From assembly GCF_055900595.2 (NCBI RefSeq), contig NZ_CM148325.1: a stretch of 64,000 bases of DNA. One strand, written 5' to 3'. The position numbers and the translations under genes were made by a program. Below, in pieces: positions 9,273-25,830 of this stretch (positions are counted from its first letter, which is position 1; each line of letters starts with the position of its first letter). Under the pieces are notes generated by a model. That model had not been told where the DNA came from and ran no database searches. It saw nothing but the letters and a program-made list of their open reading frames with translations.

Positions 9273-10151
9273 TTACACCAAATTTACAGAGAAGATTTCC
9301 TCGACCATTGCCCCCGCCAGACGCTGCGCTGAACAGAGTCGTGGCATCCCCAGTGCGACAGTTTGCCAGCGTTGGGTCACTGACCAGCAAACGGGTTGTT
9401 TATCTGCCGTGGACCACTTTCCCAGCCAACTTAAAAAATCAGCATGATCCCCACCCGTCGGGGCGGTTGAAGAGGTAAACCACTGATGGTAATAGTGACG
9501 AGTGGTCGTTGCCGCATTAATACTCTCTGCCAGATGTTGTGTCGCTTTCACGCGCAAATCACCCAGCAACAACGCCACCGCTTGCGGGCTTCCCAGACGG
9601 CAGGCATCGCCAAATGCCCCCCAGCGCAACTCCTCCAGAACGATAAAACAGCGCCCAGGCAACGACCAGGCGTTATACGCCCCAGCACGCCAGCGGGTAA
9701 AAATTTGCTCGCTCTGATCACCTGCCTGCACCAGTAGGCCTCGTTGCGTTAACGCCTTTTCCTTCCAGCGACAACGGGCTGAAAACCACTCATACAAGGC
9801 GGCAATTTGCTGGGGGAGCTCCGGGAAAGCAGAGTGCTGGCGGTGATCCATTTTTTGCAGCAGCGCCAGATGCTGCGCGATCTGCGTCAGCGCCAGATGA
9901 CCGGGATCCAGCATCGACGCCAGTTTTTCCACCAATGTCAGACGCAGGCTAAGCGGCGCATTTAACATCCCGCCGTTCGTCCATGCCTGAAGCTGCACAC
10001 GCGCAAGAAGTTCCTGCATCAGTCGTTCACGAAACTGCTGCTGATGGGCTTGTGGATGGCGGGCATCATCGCCCTGCGCCAGATCCACTAAAAAGCGGGG
10101 ATGAATCGACTCCAGCACACGACCGGGGCCGTCCAGCAACGTCTTGGTCAA
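9273..10151 (-). CDS. yjcZ: Uncharacterized protein YjcZ, downstream partner of crfC
   Basis: 292 aa ORF whose start overlaps the crfC stop by 4 nt (translational coupling); no motif I recognise. Confidence 0.75.
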   Translation of the reverse strand: MTKTLLDGPGRVLESIHPRFLVDLAQGDDARHPQAHQQQFRERLMQELLARVQLQAWTNGGMLNAPLSLRLTLVEKLASMLDPGHLALTQIAQHLALLQKMDHRQHSAFPELPQQIAALYEWFSARCRWKEKALTQRGLLVQAGDQSEQIFTRWRAGAYNAWSLPGRCFIVLEELRWGAFGDACRLGSPQAVALLLGDLRVKATQHLAESINAATTTRHYYHQWFTSSTAPTGGDHADFLSWLGKWSTADKQPVCWSVTQRWQTVALGMPRLCSAQRLAGAMVEEIFSVNLV

Positions 10152-12376
10152 TATCGTTCTGCCGTGAAAAGTGTTTGAATATCATCGCGTAACAGCTGAG
10201 CGTCGGTGTAAATCCAGCCATGAGTCATCACAGTCTGCTGCAATTGCTGCTGCATCAGCCTGACCACCGATTCATTTTGTTGACGCAGAGCCAGACTTTC
10301 GCGTAAACGCGTCTGTAATTCCGTCAAACATGAAGCGAACTCAGCGAAAAAAGTATTCATGCCTGCCGTAACAGATTCATCGACCTGCTCTGCCAGAACT
10401 TTAGCCATTTGTTGGCAATAAAGATCGACTTCTGTGCTTAATGCTCGTTGCAACGCACTGTAATCAACCGTCTCTATCGGGGATTTCTCATTTCCCCGTC
10501 CCCAGTCGGGCTGATTCAACCAGCGCGAAAAAGTCTCACGCACAACGCCTAAACGCGTGCTCTGCTCGTCCATTGCGTCCTGGCGGGAGATGACTTCACT
10601 GAACAACTGGCGAGTGTTGAAGTGGGGAACTGCGCCGTGAAAAACAGGAAAATGAAACCCAGGACGAAACCCTGACTCGCTCAATTCCATTTTGACTTGT
10701 TGCTCAATGGGCCGAATAACATCGGTTAACACCCGGCAAAGAGTGGATTCAAGCTCGGCAAAACGCAGCGTAAAGTCGCGACTGATGGTGTTCTGCGCCG
10801 TCTGTAACAGTGTCTCACAGCAGGTACGAATCTCGCTTAATGACCCCGAATCATCCTGAAACAACGCGGCTAACTGGGCATTCACCGCATCTTGCTGTTG
10901 ACGCAGAAAGAGGTTGGCGGAGGTCAGGGCCAGCTCGATTTCATGTTTAATCTCGCCGCTCACCTGAGCCTGATTGAGTTGAAATAGCTGCAAACTTTCT
11001 TCGATCTGGTGGATATTTTGCCGCAATTGTTCACAAGCGACGTTTAACCCGTGCGCACGAAAATCCAGGTATTCCCGCGCCTGCTGCGCGTAATTCAACA
11101 GTTTATGCGCGGCAGATCGCAGAGCATACAACGAGGCGTTAGCGTAAGCGGCATGAAGCAACGCCTGAATTGGCTGGGCGAACAGCGAATCTTCCCACAA
11201 CTGATCGGCAGCATGACGAATATGTTCGAGGTCCGCCAGGTCGGCATGACGCCAGCGCCTGCCGAGCGCGGCATGGGCAAAATCTTCCACCCAGCGTTGT
11301 TGCTCTGGCGCGGGTAACTTACCGTTGTTGGCTAACTCATTACGCGCCCGATTCGCCAGGTAGCCCCACATCGACGACACTGGAAATATCTGCTGTGGCG
11401 TAATACAGCCTTTCATCAGCGTCCCGGAAATCAGTGCCCGCACCTGGTCGGCGTCGTCACTGTTACGATCCTGTTGATCGAACTTATTGACCAGCACATA
11501 CAGCGGCACCGATTGCCCCACCGCCAAAATCGCCTCACGGACCTCTTCATCGGAGATCGATTTCAGTTGCGTATAATCCAGCACCGCCAGTACCGCCGAG
11601 GCGCGAGCCAGCTGCTGGTTAAGCATTTTTTGCAGATGCGGTTGCCCGGCTTCATTTGGCCCAGGGGTATCCAGTAACGTCAACTGACCGGGATAACTCT
11701 CCAGCCCCGCCAGATGGACAAACTCCACTTCAATCACGGGAATATGCTCAATGGCGGCGTAAGCAGAAAAAGGAAAATCGACGTCCAGCGCCTTCGCCAG
11801 TCGCACCAAATCATTCAAACTTTTCAGACAATGAAAAATAGGCTGGGCACCCAAATAATATTTTTCGAAAGCGACGCCATTTTCGATCCGCTGCATAAGC
11901 GCACGCATATCTTTATCTATTTCCAGCACATCGGTCAGATGCTTAATATCGCAGTCACGCAGGCGCTGGTGTAATTGTTGAATTAAACAGTCGATTGGCG
12001 CGACATGTGAAAAATGCAGTACCGGTTCTTTTTGCCCGGGCGTATGGCGAATAAGCGTCGGCAGCGCAGTCATTGGGCGATTGCGATTAGGCAGAACCTC
12101 CGTACCAACAATAGCATTAATGGTGGTTGATTTCCCTGCTTTCATAGTACCGACAATCGCCAGCACCATTTCCAGTCGGGAAATTTTACGCAACTCATTA
12201 TTCAGCATCGCGTGACGTTCGGCGATATTAGGCTGACTCCAGGGTAAAGCCAGTTGTGGCGCATCGTCTCCGGGTACAGAGAGAGGCATTTTTTCCAGTA
12301 ACTGCAACTGTTGGCGAGAAAGCTGTAGCAGGCGTTCAGCCTCCTGACTTAACTCATACAGGGTCTGTGTGTACAT
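10148..12376 (-). CDS. crfC: Dynamin-like large GTPase CrfC (YjdA)
   Basis: 742 aa; P-loop GTMKAGKSTTINAIVG near the N-terminus followed by long coiled-coil-rich regions. Confidence 0.8.
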   Translation of the reverse strand: MYTQTLYELSQEAERLLQLSRQQLQLLEKMPLSVPGDDAPQLALPWSQPNIAERHAMLNNELRKISRLEMVLAIVGTMKAGKSTTINAIVGTEVLPNRNRPMTALPTLIRHTPGQKEPVLHFSHVAPIDCLIQQLHQRLRDCDIKHLTDVLEIDKDMRALMQRIENGVAFEKYYLGAQPIFHCLKSLNDLVRLAKALDVDFPFSAYAAIEHIPVIEVEFVHLAGLESYPGQLTLLDTPGPNEAGQPHLQKMLNQQLARASAVLAVLDYTQLKSISDEEVREAILAVGQSVPLYVLVNKFDQQDRNSDDADQVRALISGTLMKGCITPQQIFPVSSMWGYLANRARNELANNGKLPAPEQQRWVEDFAHAALGRRWRHADLADLEHIRHAADQLWEDSLFAQPIQALLHAAYANASLYALRSAAHKLLNYAQQAREYLDFRAHGLNVACEQLRQNIHQIEESLQLFQLNQAQVSGEIKHEIELALTSANLFLRQQQDAVNAQLAALFQDDSGSLSEIRTCCETLLQTAQNTISRDFTLRFAELESTLCRVLTDVIRPIEQQVKMELSESGFRPGFHFPVFHGAVPHFNTRQLFSEVISRQDAMDEQSTRLGVVRETFSRWLNQPDWGRGNEKSPIETVDYSALQRALSTEVDLYCQQMAKVLAEQVDESVTAGMNTFFAEFASCLTELQTRLRESLALRQQNESVVRLMQQQLQQTVMTHGWIYTDAQLLRDDIQTLFTAERY

Positions 12377-12777
12377 AGAAAATTTTTCCTTAAAGCAAAT
12401 TTTATTACTTTTATTTAGCCAGATTGTTTTTGAGTTCTGTTTTCGGCTTTTATAATTACTGCAAGAAATAATTTTATATTTAGAGTGTTGTTTTTTATTA
12501 GAATAAATAACGTCTTCCGATACGTTTAAAACGTCAGAAAGATAAAAATATCATTTGAATTAAAAAAAGAACAAGTAGAGCATTAACCTTATCTTAAATA
12601 ATAAATGGAGGCAAAAAGATTATTTTCTTTTTGCGTTTCCTTTCAAATGAAAACGATCGTCGTCTAAAATCAGCAGTACCCCCGACAAACTCAGGGATTT
12701 TGTGTATAATTGCGGCCTTTTTCGGCAATCTGCCGTTTTTTGGCGCTTTTGCCCTGCTGACTTTTGAGGAAATCCAC

Positions 12778-13113
12778 ATGTCATTACCACACTGCCCAAA
12801 ATGCAACTCCGAATACACCTACGAAGATAACGGCATGTACATCTGCCCGGAATGTGCCTACGAATGGAACGACGCAGAACCTGCACAGGAAAGCGACGAG
12901 CTGATCGTTAAAGATGCTAACGGCAATCTTCTGGCTGATGGCGACAGCGTTACCATCATTAAAGATCTGAAGGTGAAAGGTAGCTCTTCGATGCTGAAGA
13001 TCGGTACCAAAGTGAAAAACATTCGCCTGGTTGAAGGCGACCACAACATCGATTGCAAAATCGACGGTTTTGGTCCGATGAAACTGAAATCTGAGTTTGT
13101 GAAAAAGAACTGA
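12778..13113 (+). CDS. yjdM: Zn-ribbon protein YjdM (historically PhnA)
   Basis: 111 aa from [30 protein letters not shown] (CxxC...CxxC zinc ribbon); the six-frame ORF starts further upstream at 12631. Confidence 0.85.
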
Positions 13114-13144: not shown

Positions 13145-13290
13145 TCGGTAGGCCGGATAAGGCGCTCGCGCCGCATCCGGCTACGGTGCCGACTGCCTGA
13201 TGCGACGCTCGCGCGTCTTATCAGGCCTACAAATTCTCGCACCATCCGGCAACGGTGCCTAATGCGACGCTTACCGAGTCTTATCAGCCC
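13145..13290. repeat. Cluster of REP (repetitive extragenic palindromic / BIME) units
   Basis: Repeated ggccggataaggcg...cgccgcatccggc and gcctgatgcgacgc...gtcttatcaggcctac motifs in alternating orientation. Confidence 0.8.
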
Positions 13291-25260: not shown

Positions 25261-25578
25261 TCAATTTTTCCGCTGCTCTATTGCCGTAATCGCCTCCACA
25301 CGTTGTTGATGACGACCGCCTTCGTACTGCGCGCCCAGCCACGCATCCACAATCATTTTTGCCAGTTCGAGGCCAACCACTCGTGAACCAAAAGCCAGTG
25401 CAACTTCACTGGCGTAATGCGGATAATCAGTGCGCTCTGACGACCTGGTTTCTTTATCAATCCCCTCACTCATTGACCATGAATAAAAGGCTGGCACAGC
25501 AACGCAGAATCCTGCGGTGCCAGCGACATGACCGCCCATTGCTCCGGTACGTTTTTTAATAAGAAACACCGGTTGCAT
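25261..25578 (-). pseudogene. rpiB: Remnant of ribose-5-phosphate isomerase B gene (internally deleted, 5' part scrambled)
   Basis: C-terminal ~60 aa of the ORF (SSERTDYPHYASEVALAFGSRVVGLELAKMIVDAWLGAQYEGGRHQQRVEAITAIEQRKN) matches RpiB as I recall it, but the central ~50 residues, including the GTGVG...AANK active-site region, are missing and the N-terminus does not match. Confidence 0.55.
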
Positions 25579-25830
25579 TGATTAATTGTGCTCAGTATTT
25601 GCCGAAGTACAATATATATAATAAATATATAAAACACCTCATATTATTTACAGAGATAATAAATTCGCATACTTTTCCCTCTTCAGCACAAATGCCTAAT
25701 AAAATGGCTCGTTCCGCTCACACTTCCACTTATTAAAATCGCAATTTCCCAATTATGATAACGCCAGCTTTAAATGACGTATTTTGCATGGATTACATAT
25801 TTACGACACAAATGATAAATGGAGATTTAT

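Follow-up and report, generated by a model that had tools for sequence, protein, structure and literature searches.

The crfC-yjdM intergenic region of Escherichia coli, a known H-NS target, probably comprises two back-to-back control modules

The DNA that separates the divergent genes crfC and yjdM of Escherichia coli is a real and ordinary H-NS-repressed promoter region, and it is already known as such. In this study, we analysed this gap within a 64,000-nucleotide stretch of the E. coli chromosome (hereafter, the window) and in related genomes. Our results indicate that the gap probably holds a pair of control modules that lie back to back and are independent of each other: an H-NS platform on the crfC side and, on the yjdM side, a module with its own promoter. 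To the published picture we add that the two modules are separable, that the AT-rich tract occurs only with crfC-yjcZ, and that the yjdM promoter is unlikely to lie in silenced DNA. Moreover, motif-level claims for H-NS, FliA and DnaA in the AT-rich tract do not rise above chance. The coordinates of the features are collected in Table 1.

Table 1. Features of the crfC-yjdM locus, in window coordinates
Feature	Position	Strand	Remarks
crfC / rdcA (yjdA), dynamin-like GTPase	10148-12376	minus	742 aa
FliA (sigma-28) promoter inside crfC, driving yjcZ/rdcB	10376-10403	minus	exact match to the motif; PMC4183435 Table 2
Intergenic region between crfC/rdcA (minus) and yjdM (plus)	12377-12777		401 bp, 31.2% GC
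AT-rich core	12377-12660		24.6% GC; crfC upstream region and leader; published H-NS target
crfC-proximal conserved block, including the crfC Shine-Dalgarno AAGGA (12387-12391, minus)	12380-12420	minus	many invariant alignment columns close together (8 sequences, 3 genera)
Conserved block TTCGGCTTTTATAATTAC	12442-12459		plus-strand TATAAT at 12451-12456; minus-strand GCCGAAAA
Candidate crfC sigma-70 promoter, conserved block	12586-12614	minus	TTGCCT (12614-12609), 17-bp spacer, TAAGGT (12591-12586)
yjdM promoter and leader module	12661-12777	plus	46.6% GC; conserved independently of crfC; L020 homology from 12665
Predicted sigma-70 promoter of yjdM	12682-12710	plus	-35 CCGACA (12682-12687), 17-bp spacer, -10 TATAAT (12705-12710); consensus scan
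Small hairpin CGGCAATCTGCCG followed by T6, yjdM leader	12723-12741	plus	terminator-like or stabilising-hairpin-like
yjdM Shine-Dalgarno GAGGA	12766-12770	plus	7 nt upstream of the start codon (12778)
yjdM (phnA), zinc-ribbon protein	12778-13113	plus	111 aa

A 551-bp query spanning 12300-12850 matches 5413 of the 5426 complete E. coli genomes, with coverage of at least 80% in 5404 of them, where crfC and yjdM are annotated on either side. In K-12 MG1655, the same gap sits between yjdM (b4108) and rdcA (b4109, that is, crfC/yjdA), and no feature is annotated within it; positions 12377-12660 of the window correspond to K-12 coordinates 4326850-4327134. Among the few E. coli genomes without the gap is AVS0747 (L018 3616-4013). 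In this strain, yjdM is bordered, 13 bp upstream of its start, by genes for electron-transfer flavoproteins and a truncated pseudogene with a cupin domain, and the usual yjdM promoter module has therefore been lost.

An earlier note on this DNA had described a divergent region of about 400 bp between crfC and yjdM, extremely AT-rich in comparison with the flanking genes and full of A/T tracts. Its boundaries coincide exactly with the gap delimited by the start codons of crfC (12376-12374, minus strand) and yjdM (ATG at 12778, plus strand). The gap is indeed poorer in GC (31.2%) than the adjacent coding sequence (47-50%) and the window as a whole (52.7%), and it contains 22 runs of A or T of at least four nucleotides. 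However, the extreme composition holds only for some 285 bp; it is confined to 12377-12660 (284 bp, 24.6% GC), and the other 117 bp or so are of ordinary composition. Both GC minima of the 64 kb, for segments of 200 bp (22.5%) and 280 bp (23.9%), start at position 12372. In addition, TpA steps are 2.4 times denser in the core than in the window (9.9 versus 4.1 per 100 bp). Elsewhere in the window, a larger AT-rich stretch of about 1 kb lies at approximately 48700-49800, with 400-bp segments down to 28% GC, and shorter low-GC patches are found near 1270-1450 and 25500-25680.

The division of the gap into two parts is also apparent in other genomes. A scan for CrfC, covering one genome per species, retrieved orthologous loci in Escherichia sp. 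E1V33, E. whittamii, Citrobacter amalonaticus, C. koseri and Yokenella regensburgei. Each of these loci has crfC and yjdM diverging from each other across a gap of 346-528 bp with 33-37% GC. The low-GC part always lies on the crfC side, and about 120 bp of normal GC content lie on the yjdM side; the GC content of the crfC coding sequence (49-56%) is normal for these genomes. In an alignment of eight sequences from three genera, the 117 bp next to yjdM hardly vary. The central part of the AT tract (12460-12580) shows little conservation, is hard to align and carries many indels, and conserved islands stand out within the tract at 12380-12420, 12442-12459 and approximately 12584-12614. Variation among eight diverse E. 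coli strains follows the same pattern: per 100 bp, the AT core has 6.3 variable columns and the yjdM module 1.7, and the coding sequences on either side of the gap have 3.7 and 3.3.

Contigs that encode close homologues of YjdM reveal the locus without crfC-yjcZ. In an enteric genome (L020) and in a contig whose YjdM cluster bears the name Klebsiella pneumoniae (L021), crfC-yjcZ is absent and yjdM faces proP divergently across a gap of 47-50% GC. Homology of L020 to the gap of the window starts only at 12665. The L021 sequence has a BLAST match to the yjdM coding sequence only, yet its promoter hexamers align. E. albertii (L019 2463-3030) has undergone a deletion of crfC-yjcZ in which the whole gap and the first ~60 bp of crfC persist at 86% identity. 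A 94-bp fragment of yjcZ is also left, and the proP-yjdM spacer of this species is 947 bp long and harbours an orphan AT-rich tract. The distribution of crfC-yjcZ is patchy: Escherichia, Yokenella and some Citrobacter carry the genes, E. albertii has deleted them, and neither L020 nor the Klebsiella sequence L021 has them. Patchiness of this kind goes with a horizontally acquired island under xenogeneic silencing, but AT-rich coding sequence, the other mark of such islands, is not seen in crfC. The AT-rich tract accompanies crfC-yjcZ or marks its former place, and it is missing where yjdM faces proP directly. Because the tract follows crfC-yjcZ across genomes, it belongs to the crfC-yjcZ module, and the 117 bp of normal GC content belong to yjdM.

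The earlier note had further called the A/T tracts typical of H-NS-bound curved DNA and proposed that the gap may hold silenced promoters for both genes. For crfC, this proposal finds support in the literature. Binding of H-NS to the crfC promoter region and repression of crfC have been reported (Taniguchi et al., PMC6374313; Oshima 2006 and Shimada 2011, cited there), and a delta-hns strain had markedly more crfC mRNA, both at 30 and at 42 degrees C (PMC6374313 Fig 5B). As for H-NS ChIP data, the check suggested in that note, crfC-yjcZ is associated with H-NS in two of the three studies compiled by Curran et al. 2017 (PMC5797941 Table 2), namely Kahramanoglou 2011 and Oshima 2006 and not Grainger 2006. 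The same table lists a 2.6-fold increase of crfC-yjcZ upon over-production of SlyA, an H-NS antagonist. H-NS binding, derepression in delta-hns and the effect of SlyA have thus been shown for crfC in the literature. Of note, the RdcA protein is detectable throughout growth (PMC6510439), indicating that the repression of crfC by H-NS is partial. For yjdM, the proposal was not supported, as detailed below.

The sequence properties on which H-NS binding could rest were then considered one by one. The AT content of the core, 24.6% GC over 284 bp, is that expected of an H-NS-bound region. The high-affinity motif TCGATAAATT (Lang 2007) has no match in the gap at up to two mismatches. At three mismatches there are five occurrences, against 8.5 expected from shuffled sequences, and hence no excess. 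A nucleation motif of this type is common among H-NS-bound regions without being obligatory. Regarding curvature, a wedge model places the mean of the gap at the 99.5th percentile of 400-bp segments, a value that is indicative only. However, AA/TT steps in the gap show no phasing at 10-11 bp above shuffles (power at 9.5-11.5 bp below the 95th percentile). The high wedge-model curvature may reflect the density of A/T runs rather than phased bending, and the absence of helical phasing among its A-tracts tempers the description of the gap as typical of H-NS-bound curved DNA. The best-supported basis of H-NS binding is the combination of AT-richness and TpA density, instead of a nucleation motif or phased bending.

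These observations bear on the notion that the low GC content arose passively, through AT-biased mutation in a long non-coding spacer under relaxed constraint, and that the composition itself does nothing for regulation. Such drift would account for the AT core being the most variable segment within E. coli, for the many indels between genera, and for the lack of a specific H-NS motif or A-tract phasing. We nevertheless consider it very unlikely, since three genera have kept AT-rich DNA beside crfC although its sequence has turned over, crfC-less gaps of comparable length have 47-50% GC, and the published delta-hns and SlyA effects reveal a response of the region to H-NS. That the core is the fastest-changing segment and yet stays AT-rich in E. 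coli is consistent with selection that acts on its composition and not on its sequence.

The position of the crfC promoter within the core is less evident. No strong conserved promoter close to crfC emerged from the alignment of the gap, and the locus has no entry in the start-site and 3'-end tables of Kim 2012, Cappable-seq and Adams 2021. Likewise, Genomic SELEX with the RpoD holoenzyme alone reported no constitutive promoter in the crfC-yjdM spacer. The candidate at 12586-12614 scores 8.9-9.4 at the same alignment column in seven of the eight sequences; shuffled versions of the gap yield a mean best score of 10.9, above the 9.4 of this candidate. Since promoter-like hexamers are expected by chance at this composition, its conservation is the sole argument in its favour. 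Judging from the sequence, this element may be the crfC promoter, in which case the leader would be about 200 nt long.

If so, the AT tract could function chiefly as an extended AU-rich 5' leader of crfC, transcribed from 12586-12614 and acting post-transcriptionally, through translation control or mRNA decay (for example, by CsrA or an sRNA near the AAGGA), with H-NS binding as a side effect of composition. The candidate is the only promoter-like site on the minus strand that is conserved across genera, it lies ~200 nt from the crfC ATG, and the islands 12380-12420 and 12442-12459 would fall inside the leader. Against this reading, the -10 element TAAGGT is weak and the site scores below the mean best of the shuffled gap, the middle of the leader (12460-12580) is poorly conserved and rich in indels, and the derepression of crfC mRNA in delta-hns indicates transcriptional control. 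A predominantly post-transcriptional role is thus rather unlikely, even though a long leader is compatible with the two-module arrangement that we favour.

A second possibility concerns the block TTCGGCTTTTATAATTAC, which is kept in Escherichia and Citrobacter amid fast-evolving AT-rich DNA. Its TATAAT, which points away from crfC, retains a promoter-like score in seven of the eight sequences. A hidden plus-strand RNA of ~175 nt, antisense to the crfC leader, might run from this element to a terminator-like structure at 12611-12634, where a 9-bp hairpin is followed by a T-rich tail. Several points speak against such a transcript: no part of the gap is less conserved than its putative body, the hairpin has only three G-C pairs and a poor T-run and is not conserved in Citrobacter or Yokenella, Rfam gives no match at E<=1 and K-12 has no annotation there, and promoter-like hexamers are expected by chance at the composition of the gap. 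We regard this RNA as highly improbable. A broader conjecture, which we consider doubtful, is that the islands 12442-12459 and 12586-12614 mark unmapped transcription units, either a distal crfC promoter with a ~200-nt AU-rich regulatory leader or an H-NS-suppressed plus-strand antisense transcript and that, separately, the hairpin and U-tract of the yjdM leader form an uncharacterised attenuator or mRNA-stabilising element.

In older or speculative accounts, the gap drives crfC through the flagellar sigma factor FliA or is a site of DnaA control. Sequences resembling FliA sites and DnaA boxes have been noted ahead of crfC (PMC6374313), the conserved minus-strand GCCGAAAA (12440-12447) resembles a FliA -10 element, and yjdA reads fall from 111 in the wild type to 11 in delta-fliA (PMC4183435 Table 2). 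However, the FliA motif TAAAGTTT-N11-GCCGATAA has no match in the gap at up to three mismatches; its sole match nearby lies at 10376-10403. ChIP-seq of FliA gave no site ahead of yjdA either, and the authors of that study call the earlier prediction incorrect. On the basis of the motif scan and the ChIP-seq data, we rejected a FliA promoter in the gap and, given the motif scan, the reading of GCCGAAAA in the block 12442-12459 as a FliA element. The drop of yjdA reads in delta-fliA in the absence of an upstream FliA site implies that a further, unexplained input exists. As for DnaA, the sequence TTATACACA at 12701-12709 (minus strand) fits the relaxed box TTWTNCACA and overlaps the -10 element of yjdM. 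This match may be due to chance; DnaA-box-like 9-mers at relaxed stringency are common, with 218 in the window. Altogether, control of crfC from the gap by FliA or DnaA is extremely unlikely, and none of the four rival explanations is favoured over the two back-to-back modules.

The FliA match inside crfC agrees with the intragenic promoter of Fitzgerald et al., and it qualifies the view of the gap as the home of the promoters of the dynamin-like operon: not all of them reside there, as yjcZ has a FliA promoter within crfC. Papers on NtrC and on a LysR-type regulator that mention yjcZ were also considered and set aside, as they refer to other positions or to expression changes only.

In contrast to the AT core, the yjdM module offers a well-conserved promoter. 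The PWM score of the predicted sigma-70 promoter is identical in all eight aligned sequences, and CCGACA and TATAAT are invariant in nine of nine enterobacterial sequences, including Klebsiella and genomes without crfC. From the position of these hexamers, transcription of yjdM would start near 12717, at about 4326795 in K-12, and the predicted leader would be U-rich and ~60 nt long. The GAGGA of yjdM is kept in the alignments except in Yokenella and Klebsiella. The leader hairpin and its T6 tract are conserved across genera, and the Klebsiella variant CGGCTATCAGCCG differs by one compensatory change from A-U to U-A. Covariation of this hairpin is not significant in nine sequences, as 57 of 500 shuffles score as well, and the minimum free energy fold of the leader has a z-score of -1.6.

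These data argue against a silenced yjdM promoter. The promoter lies beyond the AT core, in the most conserved part of the gap, 117 bp of normal GC content, and it is unchanged in genomes without the AT-rich tract. Moreover, RNA-seq shows transcription of yjdM in wild-type cells during exponential growth, ~35 times that of yjdN (bioRxiv 10.64898/2026.03.23.713779); in the same preprint, yjdM was undetected by a Northern blot calibrated against plasmid over-expression. We found no sign of yjdM silencing, and no literature report of an effect of H-NS on yjdM. Hence, the silenced DNA probably does not extend to yjdM. Just 3' of the gene, positions 13151-13227 (plus strand) match the Rfam family RF02564, naRNA4 (REP325), with 99 bits, and the REP cluster 3' of yjdM has been described as a terminator and stabiliser of yjdM mRNA (2026 preprint).

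The open reading frames in the gap do not appear to be genes. The antisense frames 12594-12818 and 12620-12886 (74 and 88 aa), which overlap the start of yjdM, are kept within Escherichia only, and Citrobacter, Yokenella, Klebsiella and L020 have disrupted or altered versions of them, in agreement with the earlier remark that the frames at 12594-12886 lack coding features. We also discarded a 20-codon frame at 12605-12667, whose ATG is lost in Escherichia sp. E1V33 and E. whittamii, and a 160-aa frame at 12631-13113 (plus strand) that starts with TTG and represents an N-terminally over-extended call of yjdM. Public YjdM clusters of 133-168 aa (P0004: 160 aa, 174 members) appear to reflect wrongly called starts that extend the protein into the gap. 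No family of Rfam 15 matched within 12377-12777 at E<=1, the only strong hit being naRNA4/REP325 at 13151-13227, and searches for repeats or mobile-element remnants in the gap returned low-complexity AT matches only.

Taken together, we propose the following arrangement. The module at 12661-12777 would provide yjdM with its sigma-70 promoter and a leader of ~60 nt, and it accompanies yjdM whether the neighbour is crfC or proP. The module at 12377-12660 would serve as the upstream region and leader of crfC (rdcA)-yjcZ (rdcB). Here, base composition rather than a specific motif would create a platform for H-NS, which may coat the ~285-bp tract and keep crfC transcription low. Removal of H-NS or its antagonism, for instance by SlyA over-production, raises crfC transcription, and yjcZ/rdcB receives extra FliA-dependent transcription from inside crfC. 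Within this scheme, we infer the exact H-NS footprint and the position of the crfC promoter.

Our results have little significance beyond annotation. The level of CrfC/RdcA affects its own localisation (PMC6374313), and RdcA and RdcB activate the diguanylate cyclase DgcE, leading to production of the biofilm matrix (PMC6510439). Control of the crfC region by H-NS thus feeds into those pathways, a link that has already been published.

The crfC side of the gap is best compared with H-NS-silenced promoters that are counter-silenced by SlyA or LeuO, such as hlyE/clyA (PMC5797941 Table 2). In common with this class, crfC has an AT-rich upstream tract well below the GC content of the genome, reported H-NS occupancy (ChIP and SELEX), and mRNA levels that increase in delta-hns and with SlyA over-production. 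Unlike that class, the coding GC of crfC-yjcZ is normal (~50%), with the AT-richness restricted to the upstream tract; crfC is not cryptic, as RdcA is detectable throughout growth; and crfC-yjcZ is not listed as a LeuO target and lacks the high-affinity H-NS motif. Supplementary Figure S6 of PMC6374313 draws these same 300 bp ahead of the crfC start codon and marks sites that resemble the H-NS, FliA and DnaA consensus sequences. In our analysis, the resemblance to the H-NS motif is no better than chance and the FliA motif is absent at up to three mismatches, and the comparative data on the module structure are additional. As in other enterobacterial divergent promoter regions, two genes leave a shared spacer, here of 401 bp, each with its own upstream signals. 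There is no hint of shared or overlapping elements, as the predicted promoters are ~100 bp or more apart. Unlike in the usual divergent regions, the two halves of this spacer differ in evolutionary history and composition, and the half next to yjdM is also found where the crfC half is missing.
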